Positions 1-39,892 of a stretch of 64,000 nt of DNA are shown one piece after another. The first letter of the stretch is position 1; each line of letters starts with the position of its first letter. The notes under the pieces were generated by a model that was not told where the DNA came from, did not search any database, and saw nothing but the letters and a program-made list of their open reading frames with translations. Source of the DNA: an uncultured bacterium. GTDB lineage: Bacteria; Patescibacteriota; Minisyncoccia; Phycocordibacterales; GWA1-40-21. A program made the position numbers and the translations under genes. Where the stretch lies: positions 53,554 through 117,553 of the forward strand of contig CAWDSG010000002.1 of the NCBI GenBank assembly GCA_963804975.1, written 5' to 3'.

Positions 1-1
1 C

Positions 2-892
2 ATCAATCCGTTTGACCTTCCGGCCCCGAAAGAAGATGAATCACCGGCAGATGTATTGCGAAGCAACATCATCAATCTTGTCGGACTTTTTAGAATAATG
101 CTCGGCGGGCTTACCGCGGAAGAAGACGCTATTGTGGATCGGGCAATTTCGGAGACCTACGCACTCAAGGATATCACTCCCGATTCCGATTTTTCAAATA
201 TAGAGCCGCCGCTTCTTTCCGATTTTGAACTTGTGCTTTCGGGCATGAAAGGCGCCGAATCAATCGTCCAAAGACTTTCAAAATACACGAGGGGGACTTG
301 GGCTGGATTTTTAAACAGACCGACAAATATAAATATCAATTATAAATTCATTGTCTTTTCACTCCGAGATATGGAGGATGAGCTCAAACCGGTAGCGATG
401 TATCTGATTACCCATTATATTTGGAATGCTGTTAGGCGCGTTTCCAAAAAAAGATTGCTTGTCATTGACGAGGCGTGGTGGATGATGAAATCCGAGGATA
501 CGGCGTCGTTTTTGTTCTCCATGGCGAAAAGAGGCAGAAAATATTATCTGGGCCTTGCCACGATCACACAGGATGTCGAGGATTTCATCAAATCGCCTTA
601 CGGACTGCCCATATTGACAAACTCTTCCATACAAATTCTCTTGAAGCAGTCGCCGACCATAGTGGACAATTTGCAGAAAGTTTTCAATCTGACTGATGAG
701 GAAAAATATCTTCTGCTTGAATCCGATGTCGGTGAAGGAATATTTTTCGTGGGGTTAAAGCATGTCGCCATTAAAATTATCGCTTCATATACCGAAGACC
801 AGATAATAACCTCCGATCCTTCCCAGCTTCTGACTATAAAGCGGGCCAAAGAAGAGCTCTCAATGTCGGCAGGTGATATAATTAAAAATTGA
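2..892 (+). CDS. VirB4/TrbE-like type IV secretion / conjugal transfer ATPase, C-terminal part (5' end outside window)
   Basis: Frame 2 is open from position 2. Walker-B-like LLVIDEAWWMM and RGRKYYLGLATITQ motifs are typical of VirB4/TraC C-terminal ATPase domains. It is followed by secreted and pilin-like genes. Confidence 0.6.
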   Translation: MNPFDLPAPKEDESPADVLRSNIINLVGLFRIMLGGLTAEEDAIVDRAISETYALKDITPDSDFSNIEPPLLSDFELVLSGMKGAESIVQRLSKYTRGTWAGFLNRPTNININYKFIVFSLRDMEDELKPVAMYLITHYIWNAVRRVSKKRLLVIDEAWWMMKSEDTASFLFSMAKRGRKYYLGLATITQDVEDFIKSPYGLPILTNSSIQILLKQSPTIVDNLQKVFNLTDEEKYLLLESDVGEGIFFVGLKHVAIKIIASYTEDQIITSDPSQLLTIKRAKEELSMSAGDIIKN

Positions 893-893
893 A

Positions 894-1652
894 ATGAAAA
901 ATATGTTTCAAAAAACAATCAAAATTCTATTGGTGCTCTGCATCATTTTTTCAGTTCAAAATAAAGTTGCATCGGCTCAAAATACCCAGGCAACATCCGG
1001 CGAAGTTGATCTTATTGTTGAGCCCACATCTTATGTGCCGCCTTTTTATCTTGGCAAGTCTATTTTTACAAATCAAGGAACAGTGCGAGTTGTAGCGATA
1101 CCGAACATTGTGATCGGCGGGGAAAAAATAAATTCAAAAAATTTGATATTCGACTGGCAAAAAGACGGCATTCCTTCGGTTTCCGATTCGGGCATGGGAA
1201 AAGATTCCATTGTGGTAGACGGCAGCGTTCCGATAAGAGATATTGATATTTCCGTAAATGTTTCGGATTCATCCGGGAATACGCTTGCCGGCTCGTCAAA
1301 AACAATATCGGCCGATGATCCAAAAGTGCTTGTATATGAAGATAGCCCGCTCTACGGAATATTATTCAACAAAGCTGTTATCGGAGATTATTATCTCGGG
1401 CAAAAAAATGAATTGGACTTGATCGCGAAGCCATATTTTTTCAATTTATCGAGCGATTCGGGAATAGATTCAACTTATAAATGGGCAGTAAACGGAAATT
1501 ATATAAGCCCTTCGGGAAGAACCAATGAGCTTCTTCTCAAACAAACAACCACCAATCTTTCGGGCACAGCTTCCGTATCGCTTACCGTAAACAATAATGT
1601 CAGAATATTCCAATATGGAAATATGAGTTTTAATGTGAATTTTGGAATTTAA
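894..1652 (+). CDS. secreted hypothetical protein (N-terminal signal peptide)
   Basis: Hydrophobic N-terminus LLVLCIIFSVQNKVASAQ. No recognisable catalytic motif. Starts 1 nt after the VirB4-like gene stop. Confidence 0.45.
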   Translation: MKNMFQKTIKILLVLCIIFSVQNKVASAQNTQATSGEVDLIVEPTSYVPPFYLGKSIFTNQGTVRVVAIPNIVIGGEKINSKNLIFDWQKDGIPSVSDSGMGKDSIVVDGSVPIRDIDISVNVSDSSGNTLAGSSKTISADDPKVLVYEDSPLYGILFNKAVIGDYYLGQKNELDLIAKPYFFNLSSDSGIDSTYKWAVNGNYISPSGRTNELLLKQTTTNLSGTASVSLTVNNNVRIFQYGNMSFNVNFGI

Positions 1653-1664
1653 TTTTAATAAAAT

Positions 1665-2570
1665 ATGAATACAAAAAATACAATGAGATACAAAAAACTA
1701 TTCCTATGGATTTTTTTGATATTTTTAAATTTGCCGGCGCTCAAAGTATTCGCGGCTGCGGCCGTCACACAAACTTATACCCCGCTTGAACCAAACGCTC
1801 TTCCGGGCGTAACGGAAAGTGCGGCAAATTTGGGATCTTTTTTGGGATCAGTATTTAATTTCGGTATCGCTGCCGCCGTCGTTCTCGCGCTTATTATGAT
1901 TATTTGGGGAGGCATTGAATATATGACAACCGATGCATGGATGAAAAAAGGGGAAGGTAAAAAGAGAATTACGGACGCCCTTTTGGGTTTGGGCCTCGCG
2001 CTTGTATCCTGGCTTTTGCTTTACATTATAAATCCGAATCTTGTAACATATAACGGGAATCTCCTCCTTAATCCCGCTACGCCGGCAAAAACATCGCAAA
2101 CGGCTCCGATAACCAATAATGCTGCCGGATCTCAGTCAACCGCGTCGCAAACAAATTCGGCAAATACAAATCCGACCGGATCTTCCGGATGCCCTGGCCC
2201 CGCCTGCATAGATGCAAGCGGTATGCTGGCATGCAAAGACACTTCAAAGTGTTATTTGGACGGTACGTTTGCAAATGAATTGGCGATCTCTCTTGCCGGA
2301 CAAAATGCCCGTGTAACCGAAGCGTATCCTCCGACAACAGAACACGAGTCCGCCTGTCATCAAAACGGAACATGCGCCGATGTCAATTTATTGAACAGCG
2401 ATACAAATGTAAATGATGTTAAACAAGTATATGCCAGCATGGTCAATGCCGGACTTCATCCTTCATATGAAACGAGTAGCGATGCGGCATGTCAGCCGTA
2501 CCTTAACGATAATATACCCTGTATTGTAAGCCCACTGAATACCGCCCCTTCTTTCCATGTAAATATGTAA
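1665..2570 (+). CDS. VirB2/TrbC-like pilin-like membrane protein with Cys-rich C-terminal extension
   Basis: Signal peptide followed by two predicted TM helices (GIAAAVVLALIMIIWGGIEYM and LLGLGLALVSWLLLYII), the topology of T4SS pilins. The C-terminal roughly 130 aa is Cys/Ser/Thr/Asn-rich. Confidence 0.4.
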   Translation: MNTKNTMRYKKLFLWIFLIFLNLPALKVFAAAAVTQTYTPLEPNALPGVTESAANLGSFLGSVFNFGIAAAVVLALIMIIWGGIEYMTTDAWMKKGEGKKRITDALLGLGLALVSWLLLYIINPNLVTYNGNLLLNPATPAKTSQTAPITNNAAGSQSTASQTNSANTNPTGSSGCPGPACIDASGMLACKDTSKCYLDGTFANELAISLAGQNARVTEAYPPTTEHESACHQNGTCADVNLLNSDTNVNDVKQVYASMVNAGLHPSYETSSDAACQPYLNDNIPCIVSPLNTAPSFHVNM

Positions 2571-2581
2571 TGTAAACAAAT

Positions 2582-3838
2582 ATGTCCAGAAGAAATTCAG
2601 TAATTATTATAGTTTCAGTCCTGATCGTAATAATAGCCGTATTGATTTTCTTTTTTTCTCGTTCGTCAAATACAGGAATAGGAAATCAGGCATCTTCTAC
2701 GCAATCGGCGGTGAATCCTTTCGGCAACGAGCCGGGGAACAAAACATCAGGCAATACGAGCAATCCTTTCGGTACAAGCAGTTCTCAGGCAAATCAGACA
2801 AACGCCGCAAACACAAATCTAGCAAAACTTATCCAATTGTATGCAAACCCGACTTCAGGATCAATGTTTTTTACCGACAAAAACAATCAGGATGTGCTTC
2901 AGTTTGTGGAAAGAGCCACAGGCAATGTATACCGATACATCTCAGAATCGCGATCAGGAACGCCGGCACGCCTGACCGATACAACGATACCGAAAATCGA
3001 GGAGGTTGTTTGGTCCCCCGCAGGAAACGGCCTTGTCTATCGATATTTGAACAATGATACCGATATGATAAGCAGTTTTTCCGGCATGATAAGTTCAAGC
3101 ACAAATGGAAATTTGGCTCAAATTACAGGCATTTTTCTCACTCCCAATCTCACAGAAATTGTTTCAAATCCAAAAGGAGATAAAATCTTTGGTGTTATGA
3201 AAAAAAGCGATGGTTCCGGCACATACGGGATCTTGTCCAATCTTGACGGTACAAACAGAAAACAATTGTTTGATTCCCCGGTATCATTCTGGAATATATC
3301 TTGGCCAACAAACACAATAATAACTTTTGCCACAAAACCGACATATAAAGATTACGGATATTTGTATTTCTTCAACACGCAAACTTACTCTTTTGACAGA
3401 ATACTTGGTGATCTTTCCGGATTATCTACACTGACGAATGATGATGCGGGTTTGGTCGCTTATTCGGAAAGCCAGAATAACGCTTTTAATCTGGGAGTAT
3501 ACGATGTAAAAAATAAAACGGACAAAAACATCAACATAGCGACTCTTGCCGACAAATGCGTCTGGAGCACGAACGATGGCAGTGTTTTGTATTGCGCCGT
3601 TCCTCAAACGATTCCGACGGATTCTTATCCGGATGCCTGGTATCAGGGAATTGAATCTTTTTCTGATAATATTTGGAAAATTGATACAAAAACAGGAGCC
3701 ACAACACAAATATATCAAACAGGTGTGAATGAAAATACAAATATTGACGCAATAAATCTCATCATAAGTCCCGATGACAAGTATCTTGCCTTTCAAAACA
3801 AAAATGATTTGAGCGAGTGGATTCTCGCAATACAATAA
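2582..3838 (+). CDS. membrane-anchored hypothetical protein (N-terminal TM, S/N/T-rich linker, C-terminal globular domain)
   Basis: N-terminal TM IIIVSVLIVIIAVLIFFF, a low-complexity SSTQSAVNPFGNEPGNKTSGNTSNPFG linker, then roughly 300 aa with no clear motif. Confidence 0.45.
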   Translation: MSRRNSVIIIVSVLIVIIAVLIFFFSRSSNTGIGNQASSTQSAVNPFGNEPGNKTSGNTSNPFGTSSSQANQTNAANTNLAKLIQLYANPTSGSMFFTDKNNQDVLQFVERATGNVYRYISESRSGTPARLTDTTIPKIEEVVWSPAGNGLVYRYLNNDTDMISSFSGMISSSTNGNLAQITGIFLTPNLTEIVSNPKGDKIFGVMKKSDGSGTYGILSNLDGTNRKQLFDSPVSFWNISWPTNTIITFATKPTYKDYGYLYFFNTQTYSFDRILGDLSGLSTLTNDDAGLVAYSESQNNAFNLGVYDVKNKTDKNINIATLADKCVWSTNDGSVLYCAVPQTIPTDSYPDAWYQGIESFSDNIWKIDTKTGATTQIYQTGVNENTNIDAINLIISPDDKYLAFQNKNDLSEWILAIQ

Positions 3839-3848
3839 TTTTTAAAAA

Positions 3849-3872
3849 AAACTTCGCGCCGCGAAGTTTTTT
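3849..3872. terminator. bidirectional rho-independent terminator between convergent genes
   Basis: acttcgcg..cgcgaagt stem flanked by A-run and T-run (aaaaaaaacttcgcgccgcgaagttttttg). Confidence 0.5.
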
Positions 3873-3874
3873 GT

Positions 3875-4396
3875 TTAAAACAAATCTATATCCACGTATT
3901 TGATGATAACGCGCCTGTCTTTACCTTCGCCTATTGATTCAGTTTTGACATTCGGTTTGCCGCTGAGCGCTCCATGGACTATCAACCTTTCGTAAGAGGA
4001 CATTGGCTCCATTTCCACATTCGATCTCATAAGGCGCGCTTTGTCCGCAAGCGCTTCGGCTTTTGACTTTAATCTTTCGATCATGCTGGATTTATAATCG
4101 TTGATGTCAATGGAAAAATCGCCCGCTTCTTCGGATCCTTTCTGCGCCATTCTTCGCAAAATATGCGTGATGGCATTCAGTGTTTCTCCTCCTTCTCCGA
4201 TCAAAATCCCTGATTCTTTTGTTCTGATTACGAATAAATTGTTTCCTCCTAAAGAATCTTCAACTATTTCAACACTGTCAAATCCTATGTTCATAAGCTC
4301 AAGGAAACCTTCTATCATGGATTTGATAGCTGTTTTTTCGGTTTGGGATAGAGATTTTTTGCTGTGATCTTTTTTTGTAATTGTTTTTTCCTCCAT
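3875..4396 (-). CDS. jag: Jag/KhpB-like R3H-domain RNA-binding protein
   Basis: C-terminal R3H-like ERLIVHGALS...ESIGEGKDRRVIIKY. Located immediately downstream of yidC, the classical position. Confidence 0.7.
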   Translation of the reverse strand: MEEKTITKKDHSKKSLSQTEKTAIKSMIEGFLELMNIGFDSVEIVEDSLGGNNLFVIRTKESGILIGEGGETLNAITHILRRMAQKGSEEAGDFSIDINDYKSSMIERLKSKAEALADKARLMRSNVEMEPMSSYERLIVHGALSGKPNVKTESIGEGKDRRVIIKYVDIDLF

Positions 4397-4400
4397 ATTT

Positions 4401-5150
4401 TTATTTTACCATATTATTTGCTTTATTTTTTCTTTTTACGTATATTTCCTGGCCAATGGCGAATAAACTGCTTGTGATCAAATAGAGTGCCACGACAGCG
4501 GCAAAGTTCCTGGCAATAACGAATATGACTATCGGCATGATATATTTCATTTGCATATTCATGCTTCGCGATAATTCATCTTTGAAATTCGGCCCCGTTT
4601 TGGCGTCTTGATTCTTTTTGGGGACTTTCGGCATAATAATTTGCATTTGCAAAAACTGCGCGACCGCCGCCAGAATGGCAAAAAGTGTGCTCTTGCCGGC
4701 GACATTAATGCCAAAAAATGTCACGTCAATTACACTCGGAATTTTTGTGAAAGAATAAATAATCGTGTGATTCAGGTTCGGCAAACCGCCTCGTAGAAAT
4801 ATGTAATATAAAGCCATCAGTATAGGCAGCTGTATAAGCATCAGAAGAATCCCCGAAAACGGATTGATCCCTCGTTCTTTATATAAACGCATTGTCTCTT
4901 CGGCTTGTTTTTGCTTATTATCCTTGTATTTCAATTTCAATTCATTGAGCTCCGGTTCCAGCCGCTTCATTTCAAACTGGGTTTTGACGGATTTCTGGGA
5001 AAGAGGGAAAAGAATAATTTTAATTATTATGGTAAAAAGAATGACCGCCACTCCGACATTGTGAAACGGAATAATCGCGATAAAAAATATCAGCGCGTTG
5101 TAAAGCGGCGTATAAAAAACAGCTTTTAATAAAGCGTGCATAAAATCCAT
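4401..5150 (-). CDS. yidC: membrane protein insertase YidC (short form)
   Basis: Multi-TM protein with the conserved YidC/Oxa1 core GINPFSGILLMLIQLPILMALYYIF. Sits in the rpmH-rnpA-yidC-jag context. Confidence 0.85.
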   Translation of the reverse strand: MDFMHALLKAVFYTPLYNALIFFIAIIPFHNVGVAVILFTIIIKIILFPLSQKSVKTQFEMKRLEPELNELKLKYKDNKQKQAEETMRLYKERGINPFSGILLMLIQLPILMALYYIFLRGGLPNLNHTIIYSFTKIPSVIDVTFFGINVAGKSTLFAILAAVAQFLQMQIIMPKVPKKNQDAKTGPNFKDELSRSMNMQMKYIMPIVIFVIARNFAAVVALYLITSSLFAIGQEIYVKRKNKANNMVK

Positions 5151-5492: not shown

Positions 5493-5882
5493 TCATATAT
5501 TTCCTTTACTGGAACTAATGGCGAGCTTATTTTTTATATAAAATCCGACTTTTTTCAGAATTTCATCAATATCTTTTTTTATTTCGGAATAAGAAATTGG
5601 TTTTTCGGTTTTTTTAGGAAAGAAAACGATTGTTTTTTTGAAATTTTCGTTCATTTTTTTTAAATTTTCCTCAATAGCCGCGCTTATTTTTCTTTTTATC
5701 CGGTGCCGGCCGACAGATGTTTTTTCTATTTTTTTTGACACAACGATGGCAAAACCCGGCATATTGGCATTTTTCTTTGAAACTTTTGCATGCAAATAAT
5801 TTTCGGATACTGCCATCCCATTTTTTATTGCATTTTCTATGTCAGCCCTTGCAGCCCTGAATTTTCTTGATAGCATCAACAC
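5493..5882 (-). CDS. rnpA: ribonuclease P protein component
   Basis: Basic protein with GRHRIKRKISAAIEE-type motif. Directly downstream of rpmH. Confidence 0.8.
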   Translation of the reverse strand: MLMLSRKFRAARADIENAIKNGMAVSENYLHAKVSKKNANMPGFAIVVSKKIEKTSVGRHRIKRKISAAIEENLKKMNENFKKTIVFFPKKTEKPISYSEIKKDIDEILKKVGFYIKNKLAISSSKGNI

Positions 5883-5936
5883 ATTATATCCGTAAGATTA
5901 TAAAAACAAAAATCCGCCAGAAGCGGATTTTTGTTT

Positions 5937-6086
5937 TTATCTTCTTTTTTTAGAAACAGAGAGTTTGGCTCTGCCTTTCTGCCTTCTCCTTTTTATAGTG
6001 TTTCTGCCGTATTTGCTCTTGCTTCGCGCGAGAAAACCATGAGTTTTCGCTCTTTTTCTTTTATTTGGCTGATACGTAAACGACAT
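5937..6086 (-). CDS. rpmH: 50S ribosomal protein L34 (below the size cut-off of the six-frame ORF list)
   Basis: Reverse-complement translation of 5937-6086 gives [49 protein letters not shown] (49 aa). This is the canonical L34 pattern, divergent from dnaA. Confidence 0.85.
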
Positions 6087-6297
6087 AAAGAAAGTATAAA
6101 CCAAAAAAGAAAAAATGTAAAGCTTGTTCAGATAAAATTTCAGGTATAATTACAAACCTCCGAACACTCGATGTTTTTTATAAAATTTGAATTTTTTTTA
6201 TTTTTGTTTTTTAATTTTACTAATCCACTTTTTATGAACACTTTGTGAACAAAAATAAATTTTAGAGAAATTCCATATCAACCTATAATTAAACCCT

Positions 6298-7629
6298 ATG
6301 ACAGATAATAAAATCCTTTGGAATAATGTCCTCGCCCAAATAGAACTTGGCATTTCTAAAGCAAATTTCAGCATGTGGTTTAAAGATACATATATCGTAA
6401 AACAGGAGGACGGCATGGTATATTTGGGAGTTCCGAATATTTTTATAAAGGACTGGCTGATGAATAAATACCATAAAGATATTATTAAAAATCTCAGGAC
6501 TTTCGGAGAAAATGTAAGAAATGTGGAATATTTGGTCTCGAAAGAAGAAAATAAAACCCATATCAAAGAATCAACAAATGTAAGCGAGCTTCCCCTCAAT
6601 GATTTTTACATAAATAAAGAAGATAATCTGAATCCTAAATATACTTTCAAAACATTTGTTGTCGGCCCGTTCAACGAACTTGCCTATGCGGCCTCGCAGG
6701 CGATTTTGAAAAGAACAGCTACTTACAATCCTCTTTTTATTTTTGGAAGCACCGGCCACGGTAAAACGCATTTGATTCAGGCGATAGGAAACCAATTTAA
6801 AGAAGACGATCCGAGCAAAAAGATTTTTTATATGACAAGCGAGCGGTTTGTAAACGATTATTTGAATTCCCTTAACAGCGGCGAGATCAATACTTTCAAA
6901 GAGAAATATAAAAAATATGATGTTTTGATTATTGACGATATACAATTTATTTCGTCAAAAACAAAAACTCAGGAAGAATTTTTTCATCTTTTCAACAGTT
7001 TTCACGACAGCGGAAAACAACTGATATTCTCGTCGGATAAGCATCCGAATTTCATAACCGATATAGAAGACCGCATCAAATCAAGATTCAATGCCGGCAT
7101 GATTCTTGAAATTCAGAAACCGGATTTTGAATCAAGGATCCAGATATTCAGGAAAAAAGCGTCTCTGATGAATCTGGCTCTTTCAAACGAAACGGTTGAA
7201 TTTTTGGCTTCATTTGTTGAAGGCAATATACGCGAACTTGAAGGTGTTTTGAATTTGATTCTATGCCAGACCCACTTAAAAAATAAGGAATTGAATATAA
7301 GTGAAATTAAAGATCTGCTTAAAAACACATCCAAACCGAAGAAAAATGTGTCCGCAAAAGATGTAATGAGGGTTGTTTCCGATTTTTACGGGATAGACGA
7401 ATCCAGTGTATCCGAAAAAGGGAGAAAAAAGGAGGTTATCAAGCCAAGGCAGGTAATTATGTATATTCTGAGGGAAGATTTTGATATTTCGTTCCCGTCA
7501 ATAGGCGATAAGGTGGGAAACAGGGACCATTCCACAGTTATCCACTCGTATGAAAAAATCAAAAATGATCTTAAAAACAATCCTGAGCTCGTCCAGGAAA
7601 TAGAGCATATCCGTTCAATGTTGAAATGA
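6298..7629 (+). CDS. dnaA: chromosomal replication initiator DnaA
   Basis: Walker A GSTGHGKTHLIQAIGN, Walker B VLIIDDIQF, and a C-terminal DNA-binding domain. Sits in the canonical rpmH / dnaA-dnaN context. Confidence 0.95.
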   Translation: MTDNKILWNNVLAQIELGISKANFSMWFKDTYIVKQEDGMVYLGVPNIFIKDWLMNKYHKDIIKNLRTFGENVRNVEYLVSKEENKTHIKESTNVSELPLNDFYINKEDNLNPKYTFKTFVVGPFNELAYAASQAILKRTATYNPLFIFGSTGHGKTHLIQAIGNQFKEDDPSKKIFYMTSERFVNDYLNSLNSGEINTFKEKYKKYDVLIIDDIQFISSKTKTQEEFFHLFNSFHDSGKQLIFSSDKHPNFITDIEDRIKSRFNAGMILEIQKPDFESRIQIFRKKASLMNLALSNETVEFLASFVEGNIRELEGVLNLILCQTHLKNKELNISEIKDLLKNTSKPKKNVSAKDVMRVVSDFYGIDESSVSEKGRKKEVIKPRQVIMYILREDFDISFPSIGDKVGNRDHSTVIHSYEKIKNDLKNNPELVQEIEHIRSMLK

Positions 7630-7824: not shown

Positions 7825-8925
7825 ATGAAAATAGAATGTATAAAAGAAAAACTCCATATCTCCGTATCAAAAGCGGAAAAAATTGTCAGTAGAAATCAGA
7901 ATTTACCCATCCTTTCTTGTTTATTATTCCAGACAAAAGGAAATAATCTTATAATAAAATCAACCAATTTGGATTTGGGTTTGGAAATTTCCATTCCGGT
8001 AAAAGTGGAAGAGCAGGGTATTGTGGCTATTCCTGCAGGAATAATAAGCAGTTTTTTAAATAATTTAAACGAAAACAAAAATATTTCACTGGAAACAAAA
8101 GAGGGAGTTTTGAGAGTTTATACAGAAAACAGCGAAGCAAACATAAAAACACTGCCACACGACGATTTTCCTACAATTCCGCTTGTTGATAACGGCAAAA
8201 TATGCAAAATGAACTCAAAAGATCTGGGGAATGGAATCAAATCGGTCATTTACAGCGCGTCCACATCTTCTGTGAAGCCGGAACTTTCAAGTGTTTATGT
8301 ATATTCAATGGAAGATCATCTGGTTTTTGTGGCAACGGACTCATTCCGCCTTGCGGAAAAAACCATAAAAACAAAGAAAAACATGAATCTTCCCGGCATT
8401 CTCATACCGTTTAAAAATGCCTCGGATATTTTAAAAATAATCGACACAACCGACGAAGAAATAGAAATAAATTCAACAAAAAACCAAATATCTTTCACTT
8501 TCGGAGGATTATACCTTGTTTCAAGAGTCATAGACGGGGTATTTCCGGATTACAAACAGATCATACCAAAAGAAGAAAAGACAAAAATCACAGTTTTAAA
8601 GCAAGACCTCATAAATTCATTAAAACTATCAAGCATTTTCTCGGACAATTTCAACCAAATAAACATAAATGTCCAAAAAGGGGCAAAATATGTCCAGATT
8701 AAAACCAAAAATTCAAATATCGGAGAAAACACGAATAAAATAGACGCGACAACGGAAGGCGAGAGTATTGAAGTGAATTTTAATCACCGATATATCGTAG
8801 ATTGCTTGCCGTCAATTTTCTCAGACAGCGTATCTTTGTTTTTTAACGGCATAAACAAACCGCTTATCATAAAAGGGACTTCCGATAAGACATTCATGTA
8901 TTTGGTTATGCCGATGAACAGATAA
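7825..8925 (+). CDS. dnaN: DNA polymerase III beta sliding clamp
   Basis: 366 aa with typical DnaN N-terminus MKIECIKEKLHISVSKAEKIV...LPILSCLLF. Immediately downstream of dnaA. Confidence 0.9.
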   Translation: MKIECIKEKLHISVSKAEKIVSRNQNLPILSCLLFQTKGNNLIIKSTNLDLGLEISIPVKVEEQGIVAIPAGIISSFLNNLNENKNISLETKEGVLRVYTENSEANIKTLPHDDFPTIPLVDNGKICKMNSKDLGNGIKSVIYSASTSSVKPELSSVYVYSMEDHLVFVATDSFRLAEKTIKTKKNMNLPGILIPFKNASDILKIIDTTDEEIEINSTKNQISFTFGGLYLVSRVIDGVFPDYKQIIPKEEKTKITVLKQDLINSLKLSSIFSDNFNQININVQKGAKYVQIKTKNSNIGENTNKIDATTEGESIEVNFNHRYIVDCLPSIFSDSVSLFFNGINKPLIIKGTSDKTFMYLVMPMNR

Positions 8926-12637: not shown

Positions 12638-13684
12638 ATGATAGGAATATTGTCTGCGGGGGGGGGGCGTCATAGTTTGAATTTTTATGATGTAATATCT
12701 GTTAAAAATTTATTTGAAGCTTGGCAAAATTTTTCTAAAAACAAAAAATCAAAAACGGAAGTTGCCAAGTTTGAATTGAATCTTGAAGAAAATCTGTTTA
12801 ACTTACATCAAGAATTGATGGCCGAAATCTGGAATCCGAAACCATATATAAAATTTTCTGTTTGCGACCCGAAACTCCGCGAAATACACAAAGCCGATAT
12901 AAGAGATATGATTTTATATCAAGTTGTGTACCAATCATTATACCAGATTTTTGACCTGGTATTTATTTTTGATTCATATTCATCAAGAAAAACAAAAGGA
13001 ACTCATGCGGGAGTTGAAAGATTTGTGGAATTTGCGAGAAAAGTTTCAAAGAATTACAAAACCGGCGGATATGCTTTGAAATGCGACATTAGAAAATTTT
13101 TTGATTCAATAAACCATAAAATATTGATTGGTTTTATAAGAAAGAAAATTACTGACGAAAAACTTATGGCAATTATTGAGAAAATAATATATTCATTTGA
13201 AAAAAGTCCGGGCAATGGTTTGCCGCTCGGCAATGTCACAAGCCAGCTTTTTTCAAATATTTATCTCAATGAACTTGACCAATTTATCAAACACAAACTG
13301 AAAGCGAAATATTACATAAGATATTGCGATGATTTTGTGATTTTAAGCGACACTTTGGAGTTTTTAGATTTTTGCTTATTAAAAATTAAAGATTTTTGTT
13401 CAAAACACCTTTTAATAGAGCTTCATCCAAATAAAATCCATATACAAAAACTTAATTCGGGAACTGATTTTCTAGGATATGTTTGCTTGCCTCACAGAAA
13501 AGTTTTGAGAACAAAGACCAAAAACAGGATTTTGAAGAAAATAAACAAATTAAAAATAGATTTTAATGATAGAAAAATAGATCAAGAAAAATTGGAGCAA
13601 ACTATGCCATCTTATTTGGGAATGTTAAAACATTGCAATGGCGAGAAGATAAAGGAACAAATAGAAAGAATTTTTACTGATTAA
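12638..13684 (+). CDS. DGR-type reverse transcriptase
   Basis: RT motifs are present, with the YxDD box as YIRYCDDFVIL. The DGR-specific LGNVTSQ sits where group II intron RTs have QGxxxSP. A G10 homopolymer runs through codons 7-10, so the exact 5' end is uncertain. Confidence 0.9.
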   Translation: MIGILSAGGGRHSLNFYDVISVKNLFEAWQNFSKNKKSKTEVAKFELNLEENLFNLHQELMAEIWNPKPYIKFSVCDPKLREIHKADIRDMILYQVVYQSLYQIFDLVFIFDSYSSRKTKGTHAGVERFVEFARKVSKNYKTGGYALKCDIRKFFDSINHKILIGFIRKKITDEKLMAIIEKIIYSFEKSPGNGLPLGNVTSQLFSNIYLNELDQFIKHKLKAKYYIRYCDDFVILSDTLEFLDFCLLKIKDFCSKHLLIELHPNKIHIQKLNSGTDFLGYVCLPHRKVLRTKTKNRILKKINKLKIDFNDRKIDQEKLEQTMPSYLGMLKHCNGEKIKEQIERIFTD

Positions 13685-16259
13685 TCGTAATCGGTATCGT
13701 AATATCTCCCTCGTTGTACACACTGTCATACACCACAACTTTCAATTGGTTTGTTCCTATAATGAGCGAATTGACCGAAGATGGCACGAAATTAAGCACA
13801 AACGGCGAAGTATCAGAAGTGCCTATCAATTGGTCGTTTAAGTAGAAATTTGCCCGCGCCGCAGGGTAGTTTGAATTTATGGAGGGCGATACTGTAATCC
13901 TGCTGTTCTGGCTATACTGCGCAGTTGAATTCGGCGATAAAATATTTATTTTCGGTTTGTTTGCCGCGGTATGTACATCATCATAAGTGGTTGGTTTTTG
14001 AACAACGGGCTGTGGATGTGCCGAAATCCATTGTTGCACTCCATATTCCCAAGAATTAAATTGTGCGTCATCGCTCGGATTTGAAGGCGGAGGGCCGTTT
14101 GGATTTGATTTGTCCACCCAATACAAAACAGAATGGATATTCGGCACAGCCACTTCTTCTTTTGTTTCAGGCGGAGTCGTATCGGTCGCGAGCTTGCCTG
14201 AAATTTTGTCTATAAAATACGTATCATCGCCCTGCCAGATTCCGCGGAGCACCGGTTTGAGTGTCTGATCAACCGGCTCTGGTTTTATAAAATCATCCAC
14301 AGATGTGCTTGCAAGCGCGGCGGCCATCAACTGTTGCCAAAGCGGCGCGATAATCAGCCCCGCGACATTTTTTACCATCGGCGTGTTATCATTATTTCCC
14401 GCCCATGCTCCCACAGCGATATCGGGCGTGTAGCCGAATGTCCATACGTCTTTATAATCGTTCGTAGTCCCCGTCTTTGCGGCAACTTGCCTTCCAGAAA
14501 ACATGAAAACGGAGTTTGTCCCGTATTCCGGCGCCTTGGCCGCATTGTCCGACAGAACATCATTCATAATATCCGCAATATTCTGTTGTAAAACTTGCTG
14601 GCTGTTCGATGTGTACTGCTCGACAATATTCCCGTTTGCGCCTTCAACTGAAAGAATGCCCGTGTAAGGATTTCTTACGCCTTCATTTGCAAAAACTCCA
14701 TAAGCGCTTGTCATATCAAGAAGCGAAACCTCTCCTCCGCCGAGAACAAGCGTAAGGCCGTATTGATTCGGATCGTCCGAAAGAGTCGTGATTCCCATTA
14801 CCTTTGCCGTATTGAGCGAATCTTGCTGTCCCGCGAGATAAAAAAGCTTGATGGAGGGAATATTTAAAGACAAATCAATCGCGGTTCGGAGCGTTACAGG
14901 GCCGCGATACAATCCGTCAAAATCCTGAGGCATATAGCATGCCGTGGACGATGATATTACCGTATCGGGATTGATCTGCTGGCCTTCCGGTGTGCATGTG
15001 CTTTGAAATTCCGTCGGGACATCAAAAAGAACGGTGTCCGGAGTATATCCTTTTTCAAAAGCGGTCGCATAGATGAAAGGTTTGAATGTCGAGCCCGGCT
15101 GTCTGTGGGCCAAAGCCACATTAAACTGTCCGTCAGTCGTTGTGGAAAAATAATCGCTTGAACCTATCATGGCGAGAATTTGCCCGGTTTTCGGATCAAT
15201 GGCGACGGCGGCCGTGTTTGACGCGTTGAAATTCTTTTCAAGCGTAGGCATATAATTTTTTATTATCTCTTCCATTTTTGCCTGCAGATTATAATCAAGC
15301 GTTGTGACGACTTTGTACCCGTTTTGCATAACGGCATCTTCGCCATATTTACCCACAAGATATTGTTTGATGAATTGCACGAAATGCGGAGCGAGGATAC
15401 CGGTCGGAGACGGGGGCAGAAACTGCACATTTTCTTTTATCGCTCCATCGTACTCTTCCTGCGTGATAAATTTATTGTCAAGCATTTTTTGCAGGACCAG
15501 ATTTTTTCGCGCATCAAGCTCGTTTTTATTTTGCCCGTATGGAGAATAATATGTCGGAGCGTTTGCTATGGCGGCGATGTACGCGGCCTGCGCAAGCGTG
15601 ACGGATGCCGAACTTGTGCCGAAAAACATCTGGCTTGCTTCCTCAACGCCGTAAATATTTCCGCCGTAAGGATTTTCGTTGAGATAAATCGAAAGTATAT
15701 CGTTCTTACTCATTGTTTTTTCAAGCTCAATCGAAAGCACCCATTCTTTCAATTTTCTTGAAATCGTTTTCTCGTTTGTCAGAAGAGAATTTTTGATGAC
15801 CTGCTGGGTTATTGTCGAGCCACCCTGGCTGAAACTGCCGGAAAGGATATCGGCGAATATTGAGCGTATGATGGAAGTTACTTTTATTCCGCCATGCTGG
15901 TAAAAACCGGGATCTTCTATCGCAATCGTCGCATTTTTCAGGTTCTGGCCGATTTCATCAAAAGGCATTACAGTCCTTTTTTCGCCTTGATGGATATCAT
16001 AAAGCAACACGGTGCCTGTCCTGTCATATATTTTTGTGGACTGGGTTACTTTTATGGCGCTAAATGAAGAAAGGTCCGGCAGTTTGAAAGTGGAGACCCA
16101 AAGGGCAAGCAAACCTGACCCGACCAAAAACAAAAAAATCAAACCCCAGAAAATTTTTTTCCTCGTGCTGATTTTTGTCGAAAGGGCGTCTTTGCGCAAA
16201 GAATGGACGACTCTTTTTGTTTTTGCCTTTATATCCGATATTTCCAACATAGTAGGCAA
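13674..16259 (-). CDS. bifunctional class A penicillin-binding protein (glycosyltransferase + transpeptidase) with C-terminal extension
   Basis: GT motifs EDPGFYQHGGI and GGSTITQQ, TP motif STFKPF, and an N-terminal TM anchor. The roughly 150-aa C-terminal extension is of unknown function. Confidence 0.9.
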   Translation of the reverse strand: MPTMLEISDIKAKTKRVVHSLRKDALSTKISTRKKIFWGLIFLFLVGSGLLALWVSTFKLPDLSSFSAIKVTQSTKIYDRTGTVLLYDIHQGEKRTVMPFDEIGQNLKNATIAIEDPGFYQHGGIKVTSIIRSIFADILSGSFSQGGSTITQQVIKNSLLTNEKTISRKLKEWVLSIELEKTMSKNDILSIYLNENPYGGNIYGVEEASQMFFGTSSASVTLAQAAYIAAIANAPTYYSPYGQNKNELDARKNLVLQKMLDNKFITQEEYDGAIKENVQFLPPSPTGILAPHFVQFIKQYLVGKYGEDAVMQNGYKVVTTLDYNLQAKMEEIIKNYMPTLEKNFNASNTAAVAIDPKTGQILAMIGSSDYFSTTTDGQFNVALAHRQPGSTFKPFIYATAFEKGYTPDTVLFDVPTEFQSTCTPEGQQINPDTVISSSTACYMPQDFDGLYRGPVTLRTAIDLSLNIPSIKLFYLAGQQDSLNTAKVMGITTLSDDPNQYGLTLVLGGGEVSLLDMTSAYGVFANEGVRNPYTGILSVEGANGNIVEQYTSNSQQVLQQNIADIMNDVLSDNAAKAPEYGTNSVFMFSGRQVAAKTGTTNDYKDVWTFGYTPDIAVGAWAGNNDNTPMVKNVAGLIIAPLWQQLMAAALASTSVDDFIKPEPVDQTLKPVLRGIWQGDDTYFIDKISGKLATDTTPPETKEEVAVPNIHSVLYWVDKSNPNGPPPSNPSDDAQFNSWEYGVQQWISAHPQPVVQKPTTYDDVHTAANKPKINILSPNSTAQYSQNSRITVSPSINSNYPAARANFYLNDQLIGTSDTSPFVLNFVPSSVNSLIIGTNQLKVVVYDSVYNEGDITIPITINQ

Positions 16260-20781: not shown

Positions 20782-22464
20782 TTAATTTTCCGTTTCAAGG
20801 TCTATAACAGAACCAAGTTCTTCCAAAGTGCTTATGCCACGGAGCACTTTGAGCACTCCATCCTGCTTCATATCCAAAATATTCTGAGACCTGGCGGCTT
20901 CTTTTATTTCCCTGTCGCTTGAGTTGGCCATAATAACTTTTTCCATTTCTTTTGTTGAAATTATGGCTTCGACTATGGCTATCCTGCCTTTATAGCCGGT
21001 ATCGTTGCATTTGTCGCAGCCGACAGCCTGCCAGATTTTTTTCGTCTGAACGCCGAGAAGATATGTTTTGTCGCTTATGCTTTCCAATACTTTCTTTATA
21101 ATATTTTTTTCTTTCTCATCTGGACTTTTTTCCTTCCTGCAATAAACGCAAAGCTTCCTCAACAATCTTTGCGCCATGGAAACATTCAAAGCCGAAGGGA
21201 TTGTCTTAGGATTTACTTTCAGATCTATAAGCCGAGGAAAAGCGCCGGCGGCGGAATTCGTATGCAGGGTGGAAAATACCAAATGTCCCGTAAGCGCGGC
21301 TTGAATGGCAGTGCCGGCGGTTTCCGCATCGCGAATTTCTCCGACCATTATCACATCCGGATCTTGTCTCATGGCGGCGCGAAGCCCCGAAAGAAACGTA
21401 TATCCTTTGTCTTCCTCAACCTGGGTTTGGACAATTCCGCCCAAATGATATTCAATTGGATCTTCGATGGTGATGATTTTTATATCAGGACTATAGATTT
21501 TTTTCATAAAAGCATAAAGCGTCGTGGTTTTTCCGCTTCCGGTCGGTCCGGTGATGAGAAGCATTCCGTTCGGCCTGCTTATCTCTCGTATAAGTATATC
21601 CAAAGTTCTCTTTTCTATGCCAAGCTCCTCAAGAGGCACTGCTATGGATTTTGGATTCAGCAATCTCATCACGATTGATTCGTTGTAGGCGCCGGGCAGT
21701 ATGGATGTCCTGATTTCAATCTCGCTGCCTTTGATCTTGATGCTGAAACGGCCGTCCTGCGCTTCGTCTTTGATGTTCAGCTTCATTCCGGAAAGCAACT
21801 TAATCCTTGAAAGCAATAAAGAATATGTAGCGCCGTCAAATTGGTATGTATCTATAAGGACGCCGTCTATCCTGAATCTTACTCTGACAGAATCTTCCTG
21901 AGGTTCTATGTGCACATCGGATGCGCCGAGAGCAAGCGCGCCGGCAAGAATAATTTCCATGATTTTTGAAATGCGGTACGTCTGCTTCACGCCCAAAAGA
22001 TCATCCATCAATTTCTTGATGTCTTTTATATGCGTGACTTTTTCCATAAGCATCACGACTTGGTCGCTTGAAATATCAAAAGTGCCCGCCACGCTTTCCG
22101 ATGAATATGACAGATCTTTGTATCTTTCCCATGCTTTTTCCAAACTTTTTTTGGATGCCATGAAAACATTCGGGAAATAACCCTCATTTGAAAGGCGGTT
22201 CAATATGGAAATCGTTTTTTGGTTGTTAGGGGAAATAATGGCAACCTGAAGTTTTTTTCCGACCATATCAAAGATAGCGATATTTGATTGCCGCGCTTCT
22301 TCTTCGTTTACAAGCCGGAGCGCATCGCTGTTGACGCGGATCGGGCCGAGATCCAGATAATTATAGCCATATCGCGAAGCCAGAATTTTCACGACATCCT
22401 CTTCCTCGTTTTTGCGCATTTCTTCCTCGCGTTTTTTTTCCTTTGTCTCGTCAAAGTCCACCAT
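20782..22464 (-). CDS. pilB: type IV pilus / type II secretion assembly ATPase (PilB/GspE family), copy 1
   Basis: N-terminal GSPII_E_N-like domain, Walker A LITGPTGSGKTTTLY, and IMVGEIRD. Confidence 0.85.
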   Translation of the reverse strand: MVDFDETKEKKREEEMRKNEEEDVVKILASRYGYNYLDLGPIRVNSDALRLVNEEEARQSNIAIFDMVGKKLQVAIISPNNQKTISILNRLSNEGYFPNVFMASKKSLEKAWERYKDLSYSSESVAGTFDISSDQVVMLMEKVTHIKDIKKLMDDLLGVKQTYRISKIMEIILAGALALGASDVHIEPQEDSVRVRFRIDGVLIDTYQFDGATYSLLLSRIKLLSGMKLNIKDEAQDGRFSIKIKGSEIEIRTSILPGAYNESIVMRLLNPKSIAVPLEELGIEKRTLDILIREISRPNGMLLITGPTGSGKTTTLYAFMKKIYSPDIKIITIEDPIEYHLGGIVQTQVEEDKGYTFLSGLRAAMRQDPDVIMVGEIRDAETAGTAIQAALTGHLVFSTLHTNSAAGAFPRLIDLKVNPKTIPSALNVSMAQRLLRKLCVYCRKEKSPDEKEKNIIKKVLESISDKTYLLGVQTKKIWQAVGCDKCNDTGYKGRIAIVEAIISTKEMEKVIMANSSDREIKEAARSQNILDMKQDGVLKVLRGISTLEELGSVIDLETEN

Positions 22465-37425: not shown

Positions 37426-38130
37426 ATGGAAAAACCTTCTCAAGTAGTCAAATTTGTTATTGATAAAGATTTGGATATTAAAAACCATTTCATTGCTTTA
37501 GATGCATATAAAATAAACAAAGAACGTGGAATCTCGCAAATTAAAGAAGAAGGTTCAGAAAATCTTTTGAAACTAAACTCAAATAAAGAGATTCAAGCAG
37601 AAATCGAAAAAACCATAGAACCATATTATAGGCAACAAGAGAAACTTCTTTCCCTTGCTGATGATATAAATAAAGAATGGATAAAAATCGAAAAAGACGT
37701 TATCCATAAACTTGAAACAATCCATAAATTTCCTTTTTCATTTACCTCAATAAAGGGAGTTTTGTCCTCGGCAAATAGATTTGGGTACGATTCAAATGGT
37801 GGATGGTTTGCAACGAATATGCGACAGAATAAATATATTTGCATAGATGTTGCAACTCATGAGCTAATGCATTTTATGTTTCATAAATATTATGATCAGA
37901 TTTGTAAAGAAAAAGGTTTATCCAAAAATCAGATGTGGGATATAAAAGAATCTTTTACTGTGTTGTTAAATATTGAATTTAATCAGTTTAGATTTCAAAG
38001 TGATAATAGCAAAGGATCACCATTACATATGGCATTAAGAGAAATAATAAAAAAATCTTGGGAAAAAAATCATGACTTTGATAAAGCTTTGGAAGAAGCC
38101 ATCAAATATATCAAAAGTATTGATAAGTAA
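37426..38130 (+). CDS. HExxHxxxH-motif protein, putative zinc metallopeptidase (ImmA/IrrE/DUF955-like signature)
   Basis: ATHELMHFMFH motif in a 234-aa soluble protein. No other homology recognised by eye. Confidence 0.4.
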   Translation: MEKPSQVVKFVIDKDLDIKNHFIALDAYKINKERGISQIKEEGSENLLKLNSNKEIQAEIEKTIEPYYRQQEKLLSLADDINKEWIKIEKDVIHKLETIHKFPFSFTSIKGVLSSANRFGYDSNGGWFATNMRQNKYICIDVATHELMHFMFHKYYDQICKEKGLSKNQMWDIKESFTVLLNIEFNQFRFQSDNSKGSPLHMALREIIKKSWEKNHDFDKALEEAIKYIKSIDK

Positions 38131-38140
38131 AAAACCTGAA

Positions 38141-39892
38141 ATGCGCATAGATTCAAAACAACTGAAAGATTTTTTAATAGATTCCGGCCTTATTACCCGG
38201 AGCGAATATGACGATATTGAAAAACAGATTGAAAAGGGCGCTTCAAAAGACGCTATTGAAAAAGTCCTGGTCAGCGAGGGGAAAATCTCCGAGGATGATT
38301 TGCGCCGCGCGCAGGCGTATGTTTTCGGCATACCGTTTGTGGATTTGAAGGATCAGAAAATAGATTTTTCGGTCCTTTCCCTTATTCCGGAGCCGGTGGC
38401 GAGAAAAAATAACATTATCGCTTTCAAAAAAAATCCTGATTCCCTTGAAGTGGCGATGCTTGATACCAACGATCTTTCTTCCATTGAATTCATAAAAAAG
38501 AAAGTCGGTTTGAGGATTCTGCCGCGGCTTACCGATACCGAATCCATCAAAAGCGCAATCTTACAATACCAAAAAAGCTTGAAGGCCGAATTCGGCGACC
38601 TGATACAGAAAGATATCCTTGCCCTGAAAAATGCCGGCGAGCTCGGAGATCTTGGAGAAGGATCTTTAAAAAAAATAGCAGAAGACCTGCCGGTTGTGCG
38701 CATCGTGGAAACGCTCCTGAAACATGCTATTTTACAGAACGCATCCGATATTCACATAGAGTGCATGGAAAACGATTTGCTCATACGTTATCGCATAGAC
38801 GGCATTTTGCACGATGCTATGATTCTGCCTAAAATCGCGGCGACATCCATTACGGCGAGGATCAAAGTGCTTTCAAACCTGAAGCTTGACGAAAAACGCC
38901 TTCCGCAGGACGGGCGATTCAAGATAGAAATAAACGGCGAAAAAGTTTCTTTCAGGGTTTCAATCATTCCGACTTATTTCGGAGAAAAAACCGTCATGAG
39001 ATTGCTCCGGGAAAACGTCGGCAATTATTCTTTGGAATCAATGGGTTTCCACGGCGAGAATCTTGAAAGAATCCACGAGGCAATGAGGCGCGCAAACGGC
39101 ATGATTCTCACGACCGGCCCGACCGGCAGCGGAAAAACCACGACGCTTTACACGATTCTTGAATTGCTCAACACTCCCGATGTGAATATCGCGACCATTG
39201 AAGACCCGATTGAATATCAGGTATCTCGGATAAATCAGACGCAAGTGAAGCCCGATATCGGCTTTTCTTTTTCAAACGGACTTCGCGCTCTTGTGAGGCA
39301 GGATCCGGATATCATAATGGTCGGAGAAATCAGAGACAATGAAACCGCTTCGCTTGCCGTCAATGCCGCGCTCACGGGTCACTTGGTGCTTTCAACGCTT
39401 CACACGAATTCCGCTTCTGGCGCGGTTCCTCGGCTTATTGATATGAAAATAGAGCCATTTCTTTTGGTTTCCACAATTAATATCGTCATGGCGCAAAGAT
39501 TGGTCAGGAAACTTTGCAAAACCAAGAGCAAATATATTCTTTCAAAAATTGAACTTGCTTCGCTTGCAAAAATCGTAGACCTGGACCGCGTGCTCGCTGT
39601 GCTCAAATCGGAAAATATTGTCGGAAAGGATGACGATTGGCCAACGATATATTTTTACAAGGCAACCGAATCGGCGGAATCTAAAGACGGCTACAGCAGC
39701 AGAATCGGCATCCACGAAGTGATGAAAATGTCGCCAACGATACAGAATCTGGTCATGAAAGGCGCGACGTCGCAGGAAATAGAGAACCAATCCAAAAAAG
39801 AAGGCATGATTACTATGGTTGAAGACGGAATTTTCAAATGCGTTCAAGGTTTGACGACGATTGAAGAGGTCTTAAGAGTGGTAACGGAATAA
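38141..39892 (+). CDS. pilB: type IV pilus / type II secretion assembly ATPase (PilB/GspE family), copy 2
   Basis: GSPII_E_N-like N-terminus, Walker A ILTTGPTGSGKTTTLY, and IMVGEIRD. Heads a pilC-pilin operon. Confidence 0.85.
   Translation: MRIDSKQLKDFLIDSGLITRSEYDDIEKQIEKGASKDAIEKVLVSEGKISEDDLRRAQAYVFGIPFVDLKDQKIDFSVLSLIPEPVARKNNIIAFKKNPDSLEVAMLDTNDLSSIEFIKKKVGLRILPRLTDTESIKSAILQYQKSLKAEFGDLIQKDILALKNAGELGDLGEGSLKKIAEDLPVVRIVETLLKHAILQNASDIHIECMENDLLIRYRIDGILHDAMILPKIAATSITARIKVLSNLKLDEKRLPQDGRFKIEINGEKVSFRVSIIPTYFGEKTVMRLLRENVGNYSLESMGFHGENLERIHEAMRRANGMILTTGPTGSGKTTTLYTILELLNTPDVNIATIEDPIEYQVSRINQTQVKPDIGFSFSNGLRALVRQDPDIIMVGEIRDNETASLAVNAALTGHLVLSTLHTNSASGAVPRLIDMKIEPFLLVSTINIVMAQRLVRKLCKTKSKYILSKIELASLAKIVDLDRVLAVLKSENIVGKDDDWPTIYFYKATESAESKDGYSSRIGIHEVMKMSPTIQNLVMKGATSQEIENQSKKEGMITMVEDGIFKCVQGLTTIEEVLRVVTE

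Follow-up and report, generated by a model that had tools for sequence, protein, structure and literature searches.

A VirB2-like pilin with a predicted Hedgehog/DD-peptidase-fold domain in the dnaA-proximal type IV secretion operon of Patescibacteria

Type IV secretion systems (T4SS) of Patescibacteria, the candidate phyla radiation (CPR), have been traced to MPF-FATA ancestry, contain TrsD, PrgI and VirB2-like pilins, are devoid of relaxases and in Paceibacteria lie near dnaA (PMC12102498, 2025). Most of the genomes with VirB2 lack VirB1, and pilus biogenesis was concluded to be seemingly independent of VirB1 (PMC12102498). These systems, which have been reviewed (PMC12857230, PMC11665869), are the only monoderm T4SS with pilins (PMC10633639, PMC11665869, PMC12857230). 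In a Saccharibacterium both the T4SS and its pilins are essential (PMC10633639), and in methanogen-parasitising Paceibacteria the T4SS pilins are among the genes of unknown function with the highest expression (PMC10936435). Here we analyse four genes of a T4SS module located at the left edge of a 64,000-nucleotide stretch of DNA from an uncultured bacterium (GTDB lineage Patescibacteriota; Minisyncoccia; Phycocordibacterales; GWA1-40-21; assembly GCA_963804975.1, contig CAWDSG010000002.1, positions 53,554 to 117,553), which as a whole is called the window below. The third of these genes encodes a VirB2-like pilin extended by a predicted zinc-peptidase-fold domain.

With the described Patescibacteria systems (Quinonero-Coronel et al. 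2025, PMC12102498; Wang et al. 2023, PMC10633639) the module shares an MPF-FATA-related VirB4, a PF18895 pilin beside virB4, TrsD and PrgI/VirB3 just upstream (as read in relatives), the lack of any relaxase found, and the vicinity of dnaA, dnaN, rnpA and rpmH. It appears to be an instance of this already published system, of which the pilin-peptidase architecture seems new: neither enzymatic C-terminal domains of pilins nor conserved Ig-like and TolB-like genes flanking the pilin are mentioned in the searched text of PMC12102498 and PMC10633639, PMC12857230, PMC11665869 and PMC10936435 likewise say nothing of hedgehog-like or otherwise enzymatic pilin domains, and a description of a pilin-hedgehog fusion in CPR or PF18895 pilins was not found in the literature searched, the coverage of which was incomplete. 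Classical VirB2/TrbC/TraA pilins and the archaeal CedA1/TedC pilins (PDB 8dfu, 8dft) have about 70-120 residues when mature and no extra domain, whereas the window pilin adds a 50-residue linker and a 123-residue enzyme-like domain. The VirB1-type hydrolases of monoderms (PrgK, TraG-pIP501, TcpG, CD419/TrsG) are likewise extracytoplasmic, membrane-tethered wall-hydrolase candidates encoded in T4SS operons, but their domains are SLT, CHAP or M23/LytM and their anchor is a plain transmembrane segment, while here the domain is of the LAS type and the anchor is the pilin. From the LAS/Hedgehog-DD-peptidase enzymes themselves (M15 VanX/VanY/LdcB, M74 MepA, phage L-Ala-D-Glu endolysins) the window domain differs in passing no Pfam threshold, in a Cys-containing insertion (Cys276, Cys286) between the Glu and the last His, in the invariant or nearly invariant Cys231 and Cys237 that flank the metal motif, and in being fused to a pilin.

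We estimate at roughly 70% the probability that the module represents the four distal genes of a conserved, origin-proximal, relaxase-less Paceibacteria T4SS operon, the pilin-displayed peptidase included. This operon derives from the conjugation machinery of monoderms of the MPF-FATA type. The identities of the genes in the module, taken overall, are held with high confidence.

The pilin and its C-terminal domain

The gene at the centre of this study and its parts are listed below; coordinates refer to the window.

1665..2570, + strand: candidate pilin-peptidase fusion gene, 301 residues and a stop codon (profiles, alignment, AlphaFold2 (AF2) model)
1665..1754, + strand: predicted signal peptide, residues 1-30 (sequence; invariant column A30)
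1770..2045, + strand: VirB2-like pilin core, residues 36-127 (two long hydrophobic helices and the basic loop KKGEGKKR)
2046..2198, + strand: low-complexity linker rich in Ser/Thr/Asn/Gln/Ala, residues 128-178 (predicted disordered, low pLDDT)
2199..2567, + strand: predicted Hedgehog/DD-peptidase-fold (LAS, M15-like) zinc-peptidase domain, residues 179-301, with 8 Cys
2358-2360, 2379-2381 and 2556-2558, + strand: putative Zn ligands His232, Asp239 and His298
2469-2471, + strand: putative catalytic residue Glu269

Residues 60-122 match the Pfam family T4SS_pilin (PF18895) with 28.3 bits at a gathering score of 26.6, and all of the 32 longer orthologues from related genomes match the same family, the best at 2.3e-12. 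The signal peptide is probably cut after VFA, its Ala30 being invariant in 30 homologues. In the AF2 model helices 56-88 and 92-122 form a hairpin with the basic loop between them, and the protein resembles archaeal Ced/Ted-type conjugative pilins. Its gene stands two genes 3' of virB4 in about 60 loci. Judged by its sequence the third gene encodes a VirB2-like pilin, in agreement with the signal peptide and two-helix conjugative-type pilin that an earlier note on this DNA had recognised there.

What follows the core had been described in the earlier note as a Cys/Ser/Thr-rich extension of about 130 residues. The Cys-rich tail is present, with its eight cysteines, but the extension measures about 174 residues, of which about 123 are folded, and instead of a merely Cys/Ser/Thr-rich stretch it comprises a linker and a well-folded domain, as both the predicted fold and a profile match indicate. 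The linker (about residues 128-178) is poorly conserved in the alignment of the 30 homologues, and its pLDDT, the per-residue confidence of the model, is about 41-58 over residues 131-180, falling below 50 at 142-145 and 152-173. The conserved block of the tail in the same alignment reads ..ITE.YPPT..H.S.CH.NGTCADV.....YE....C....C....FHV. When the profile of this alignment was compared with the PDB, it retrieved the N-terminal domains of Sonic, Indian and Desert hedgehog (best E 6.6e-4), with His232-x6-Asp239 aligned to His141 and Asp148 of Sonic hedgehog (Shh) and Glu269 to its Glu177.

Structural comparison placed the tail domain within the LAS/Hedgehog-DD-peptidase fold. Its top matches are Hedgehog signalling domains and not bacterial enzymes; among the bacterial and phage members of the fold the scores were 8.3 for the murein endopeptidase MepA, 8.2 for VanX, 8.0 for VanXY, 7.5 for LdcB and VanYB, 6.4-6.8 for phage L-Ala-D-Glu endolysins and 6.2 for a Streptomyces DD-peptidase. 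In 121 family representatives, one per 50%-identity cluster, Glu219, His232, Asp239, Glu269 and Cys237 are invariant (100%) and Cys231 is retained in 99%, whereas positions 276 and 286 are each Cys in 77 of the 121, a number equal to that for His298, though not necessarily in the same sequences. We read the tail, with the predicted model as part of the basis, as a Hedgehog/DD-peptidase (LAS, M15-like) zinc-peptidase-fold domain. A low-complexity or disulfide-knot sequence was also considered and is ruled out by the high-confidence fold together with the profile match.

Variation in the pilin slot among relatives

With the 125-residue tail as query, 1.84 billion cluster representatives (50% identity) were searched exhaustively by HMMER, and 378 proteins or clusters matched at E<=1e-3. 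The pilin core is present in 132 of the 150 best matches, always N-terminal to the tail domain, which in these 150 ends a median of 2.5 residues before the C-terminus of the protein; the 17 exceptions among them are mostly fragment-like, 12 being shorter than 180 residues and several lacking a start Met. As a stand-alone ORF (open reading frame) the LAS-type tail occurs in none of the 81 related loci inspected. The tail domain is thus essentially confined to the C-termini of pilins.

Relatives of the module were collected by scanning GTDB species representatives with the pilin alignment, which yielded 80 loci, and compared with the window proteins by tblastn. Among the 84 pilin ORFs that occupy the slot, the tail behind the core has at most 20 residues in 23 and more than 120 in 42. 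The LAS-type tail was found in six distinct related loci in addition to the window (locus L001 duplicates the window sequence). In L070 the pilin tail passes the Pfam threshold of HH_signal with 33 bits, together with Peptidase_M15_3. Other wall-lytic types also occur in the slot, namely SLT lytic-transglycosylase tails (L036 with 57 bits, L078 weak) and, unsupported by Pfam, a lysozyme-like motif in L057, and so do an Ig domain, He_PIG (L062), dockerin/EF-hand repeats (L035) and about ten long coiled coils. In about half of the orthologous pilins the tail is short or contains no recognised wall-hydrolase domain. The relative closest by DnaA (L004, 91%) has a 171-residue pilin without a tail, so that the tail is dispensable for the secretion machine itself, whereas the more distant L002 (DnaA 81%) bears a LAS tail; tails were therefore gained, lost or swapped between close relatives. 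The operon of the window and most of the related operons contain only one pilin gene.

Two further observations concern the same slot. A second Cys/His-rich tail family is present in 10 loci (L017, L018, L021, L037, L058, L059, L061, L075, L079, L080), in which the pilin ORFs mostly lie at about 9.8-10.9 kb; its motif ..ITGGTE.GH..H.PG...VD....HIHVQF looks LAS/peptidase-like by eye. The profile of this family has no match in the PDB, and its profile-profile comparison with the 30-homologue alignment was uninformative, as that alignment held three such sequences and the pilin core dominated the score. Tandem pilin genes were noted in L016 (1379-2353 and 2386-3345) and in L024 (8443-9264 and 9311-10897); both pilins of L016 have alike tails of about 170 residues with the motif D.DG ... 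IVGDVGP..GE.S and no Pfam match.

The operon and its chromosomal position

According to the ORF listing and a reading of bases 1-4500, the module consists of four same-strand ORFs at 2-892 (open at the window edge), 894-1652, 1665-2570 and 2582-3838, separated by gaps of 1, 12 and 11 nucleotides. Besides the pilin gene, its elements are the following.

2..892, + strand: VirB4-family ATPase, C-terminal 296 residues (NCBIfam/Pfam matches; the N-terminal part is beyond the window)
894..1652, + strand: secreted Ig/FN3-like protein, 252 residues (signal peptide and two tandem beta-sandwich domains)
2582..3838, + strand: membrane-anchored, probably TolB-like protein, 418 residues (transmembrane helix 7-26, linker to about residue 80, beta-propeller)
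3845..3873, no strand: two-way intrinsic-terminator-like hairpin in the gap between the module and jag (A-run, CTTCGCG/CGCGAAG stem, T-run)

The co-oriented, nearly gapless arrangement recorded in the earlier note is confirmed by these coordinates, and its bidirectional terminator by the hairpin, which folds on either strand with dG of -13.3 and -13.9 kcal/mol (z of -3.1 and -3.7 against shuffles). A simple consensus terminator scan did not pick up this hairpin, which was recovered by direct folding. Downstream, on the opposite strand, lie jag (3875-4396, convergent with the module), yidC (4401-5150), rnpA and rpmH, followed on the + strand by dnaA (6298-7629) and dnaN (7825-8925). The GC content of the module is 39-44%, without a break against the neighbourhood.

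The 296-residue ATPase fragment encoded by ORF 2-892 contains both motifs that had been read from it previously, LLVIDEAWWMM and RGRKYYLGLATITQ. LLVIDEAWW is the Walker B-type motif, and a RGRKYY..TQ motif is present as well. Against NCBIfam it matches conju_CD1110 (VirB4-like) at 7e-45, F-type TraC at 5e-28, VirB4_CagE at 5e-19 and the VirB4 of mycoplasma ICEs (integrative conjugative elements) at 3e-25, and against Pfam it matches P-loop_TraG at 2.5e-18. Its residues 1-256 align with positions 478-733 of the 752 of the conju_CD1110 model (NF045971); consisting of the last 296 residues only, it reaches 153.5 bits at a cut-off of 325, while the 610-residue orthologue of L004, which is 91% identical and has the Walker A motif AKAGSGKS, reaches 365 bits. 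The identical 6.6-kb public contig (L001) lengthens the window VirB4 to 493 residues. These profiles and motifs mark ORF 2-892 as the C-terminal part of a VirB4-family T4SS ATPase, as had been proposed. An FtsK/HerA or competence-ATPase identity, which according to the earlier note would have overturned that proposal, was rejected by profile search, in which the VirB4/TraC families lead by many orders of magnitude and CedB is the sole import-type ATPase, at 9e-7.

In the relatives, which were used for the upstream genes (their VirB4 being 73-91% identical to that of the window, which starts inside virB4), the order is a secreted protein of about 756 residues, a polytopic protein of about 755 residues, a protein of about 208 residues, PrgI/VirB3, a TrsD-like protein of 214 residues and the 610-residue VirB4. 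These upstream genes were detected in 40-62 loci, PrgI and TrsD in 61-62. The PrgI/VirB3 of relatives passes its Pfam threshold (43 bits versus 27), and the TrsD-like protein matches NF041427 and the N-terminus of VirB4. The polytopic protein, which had no family match, may be called VirB6-like by its topology and position. The expectation that the remainder of the T4SS lies upstream of the window is thus borne out in relatives by the polytopic protein, PrgI/VirB3 and TrsD. We also observed that VirB4 of the relatives is effectively split: the 214-residue TrsD-like protein corresponds to about the first 140 positions of the conju_CD1110 model, and the 610-residue ATPase begins at about model position 164 (6426-7067 and 7080-8909 in L004, with equivalents in about 60 loci).

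The 80 loci are nearly all labelled Patescibacteria, Paceibacterota or Parcubacteria, and the CPR assignment of the organism made earlier agrees with these relatives, which are metagenome-assembled genomes of Patescibacteria (Paceibacteria/Parcubacteria). Fifty-four loci gave matches to every one of VirB4, Ig protein, propeller protein, YidC and DnaA, and all 54 have their genes in the collinear order VirB4, Ig protein, pilin, propeller protein, (jag), yidC, dnaA. Relative to the window proteins, the median identity is 82% for VirB4, 64% for DnaA, 51% for YidC, 48% for the pilin and 37% for each of the Ig and propeller proteins. The higher conservation of VirB4 than of DnaA, together with its fixed position on the side of the origin, points to a core chromosomal function and not to a mobile element. 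The module is a fixed, vertically inherited chromosomal operon beside dnaA. In about 60 related genomes VirB4 exceeds DnaA and YidC in conservation, and a constraint of this strength is unusual in a secretion ATPase.

The second and fourth products, previously noted as a secreted and a membrane-anchored protein, are both of these and can be described more exactly. The second has a signal peptide and two tandem Ig/FN3-like beta-sandwich domains in 252 residues, while most of its orthologues have about 335 residues and one extra N-terminal Ig domain, missing in the window and in L002, L012, L033, L039, L050 and L079. An exact look-up of the 252-residue sequence gave no match; the public gene call P0218 has 249 residues, three fewer, and presumably starts at a later Met. 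The fourth product has an N-terminal hydrophobic anchor at residues 7-26, and the profile of its 68 orthologues against the PDB lists 12 TolB structures at the top (best E 6.4e-4); a few orthologues weakly match the propeller families DUF5050, DPPIV_N, Peptidase_S9_N and PD40, and the gene keeps its position in 75 loci. Most likely, and with moderate confidence, it encodes a membrane-anchored TolB-like beta-propeller on a disordered stalk. With TolB of the Tol-Pal system it shares this weak profile match of the ectodomain, and it differs in that an N-terminal transmembrane anchor and a disordered linker replace the alpha/beta domain, in the absence of a Tol-Pal context and in the monoderm organism. 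Found on either side of the pilin gene in about 70 genomes, the Ig and propeller genes probably belong to the Paceibacteria T4SS as integral components; spacer, adhesin or wall-spanning scaffold are guesses at their roles.

Elsewhere in the window, a PBP1A gene at 13677-16259 implies that the organism makes peptidoglycan. The ten largest ORFs scanned are housekeeping genes, type IV pilus ATPases or without a family match, and neither a relaxase nor VirD4 is among them. PilB/GspE-type assembly ATPases are encoded at 20785-22464 (- strand) and 38072-39889 (+ strand), with E values of 1e-132 to 1e-156, which shows that the genome has type IV pilus machinery in addition to, and distinct from, the T4SS. 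An ORF of 807 residues at 54276-56696 (- strand) shows a weak match to methanogen-type thymidylate synthase (6e-16, residues 433-612) and another to tetrahydromethanopterin S-methyltransferase subunit A (2e-9, residues 46-152), which is an odd pairing for a bacterium. For the ORFs at 31628-34312 (+ strand, 895 residues) and 44302-46110 (+ strand, 603 residues) there is no NCBIfam match at E<=1e-5. Between an rnpA-like ORF (5493-5882) and an rpmH-like ORF (5937-6104), a hairpin with an 18-bp stem followed by a T-run (5900-5940) overlaps the last few bases of the rpmH-like ORF and is the top terminator-like match in the first 6.4 kb.

Proposed mechanism and alternative explanations

Most likely, as far as the predicted structure can guide us, the pilin exposes on the exterior of the cell an enzyme that cuts peptidoglycan. 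The mechanism in full, for which we would give about even odds, runs as follows. VirB2/TraA-type pilins form a hairpin with a cytoplasmic basic loop and both termini outside, and VirB4 drives their extraction and polymerisation. After removal of its signal peptide the window pilin would sit in the membrane as such a hairpin, which would place the C-terminal domain outside the cytoplasm on a flexible linker of about 50 residues; the eight cysteines are consistent with this location. VirB4, together with the PrgI, TrsD and polytopic proteins encoded upstream, would pull the pilins from the membrane and polymerise them, giving a pilus or tube of the conjugative type. Solved conjugative pili expose the termini, the pilin C-terminus included, on their outer surface and have the loop facing the lumen, which would put the peptidase on the outside of the filament. 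The likeliest substrate to be cut there would be a peptide stem or cross-link of peptidoglycan, given that, to our knowledge, every characterised bacterial member of this fold acts on peptide bonds in peptidoglycan or in its precursors. The target may be the own wall, letting the filament out as VirB1 does elsewhere, or the wall of an attached host cell, and the fast turnover of the tails leans to the host-facing role. The system would serve interaction with the host, by exchange or uptake of macromolecules, and not the conjugation of plasmids or ICEs. In a bolder form, which we offer as speculation and consider unlikely, every subunit of the pilus or a subset at its tip would carry an active peptidoglycan endopeptidase that digests through the host wall to open a cytoplasmic conduit, and the interchangeable tails (LAS, SLT, lysozyme-like, Ig, dockerin, coiled-coil) would be a host-range cassette in an arms race with host envelopes.

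Several points weigh against this displayed peptidase. Residues 179-301 have no Pfam match even at E<=1, neither to HH_signal (PF01085) nor to Peptidase_M15_3 (PF08291) or other M15 families, and the tail therefore represents a separate sequence family within the fold. The Pfam score of the pilin part of the window protein is barely over the threshold. The putative Zn ligands were assigned from the alignment to Shh and the predicted model, and the activity and target proposed here derive from sequence and predicted fold. Since the peptidase activity of the Hedgehog N-domains themselves is debated, fold and motifs are no proof of catalysis. Column 298 is His in 77 of the 121 representatives (as in the window protein) and Ser in 32, and the latter group could mark a subfamily with an altered metal site or without activity. 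The closest relative by DnaA, as said, has no tail at all. An appendage of about 170 residues on each subunit might clash with pilus packing, and the tail may be cut off during maturation and released, by analogy with RP4 TrbC, the C-terminus of which is cleaved off. The envelopes of methanogens generally lack bacterial-type peptidoglycan. Some Paceibacteria parasitise methanogenic archaea (PMC10936435).

Among the alternatives that concern the machine as a whole, membership of the module in an ICE or other mobile element moving DNA between cells, for which the earlier note had advised a check, is hardly credible. In its favour, the window VirB4 is closest to ATPases known from conjugation in Firmicutes and from mycoplasma ICEs (conju_CD1110, Mbov_0397 family), and the pilin has a weak match, at 2.2e-5 and below the cut-off, to a pilin-like family of mycoplasma ICEs. 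Against this stand the gene order up to yidC and dnaA, alike in all 54 comparable genomes, the conservation of VirB4 above DnaA, the unbroken GC content and the lack of VirD4 and of a relaxase in the scan of the ten largest window ORFs; the 20-kb loci of relatives, inspected by synteny only and not scanned exhaustively, showed no integrase. Moreover, relaxases are present in only 103 Patescibacteria genomes, and only 15 of 109 relaxase genes are close to virB4 (PMC12102498). On the fixed position and the not atypical composition we rejected an ICE. A different question is whether the machine imports DNA, RNA or other host macromolecules, like archaeal Ced or H. pylori ComB, and does not export them, which is possible, if somewhat unlikely. 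The weak similarity of the VirB4 fragment to the DNA-import ATPase CedB, the likeness of the pilin to Ced/Ted-type pilins and the absence of a relaxase or type IV coupling protein nearby (among the ten largest window ORFs) are in its favour, uptake has been speculated upon (PMC11665869, PMC12857230), and uptake of host RNA was reported in a cultured relative (bioRxiv 10.64898/2026.06.21.733656). The direction of transport is not fixed by sequence, however, and the similarity to CedB is far below that to conjugative VirB4. Import concerns the direction of cargo and is compatible with the pilin-peptidase account.

Two other alternatives concern the domain. It might act on the own wall only, as a substitute for VirB1, with the pilin part mainly as a membrane anchor and no peptidase-bearing filament, which we regard as improbable. 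Monoderm T4SS wall hydrolases such as PrgK and TraG-pIP501 are membrane-anchored, the organism has its own peptidoglycan synthase (PBP1A), and the L036 pilin bears SLT, the domain classically found in VirB1, all of which fits an own-wall role, as do the requirement of monoderm T4SS for a wall hydrolase and the lack of a recognisable VirB1 in most Patescibacteria with VirB2 (PMC12102498). Yet the pilin gene in question is the sole one in the window's operon and in most related ones, and would also be needed for any filament, and with about half of the pilins lacking a recognised hydrolase tail, and a tail gained or lost between L004 and L002, the variable pattern fits a host-facing module better than a housekeeping assembly factor. 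The domain may also be a non-catalytic binding module, an adhesin or ligand comparable to animal Hedgehog N-domains, that tethers the pilus to a molecule on the host surface; we judge this decidedly improbable. Its best structural matches are indeed Hedgehog signalling domains, adhesin-like tails (He_PIG Ig, dockerin/EF-hand, coiled coils) occupy the same slot, and Ser replaces His298 in about a quarter of the family representatives, but the full conservation of His232, Asp239, Glu269 and Glu219 in all 121 of them is the pattern that an active site would show, the subfamily of the window retains His298, and wall-lytic types recur in the slot, clearly as SLT in L036, more weakly as SLT in L078 and as the lysozyme-like tail of L057 without Pfam support.

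The function of the T4SS in Patescibacteria, which is essential in the one species tested and relaxase-less, is an acknowledged open question (PMC10633639, PMC11665869, PMC12857230). Widespread pilins with a wall-hydrolase-like domain of their own would give a concrete answer to the puzzle of VirB1-less systems raised in PMC12102498. The tail domain, small and soluble, lends itself to expression and assay, and it offers a natural epitope for locating the pilus, while the hypervariable tail may report host specificity.

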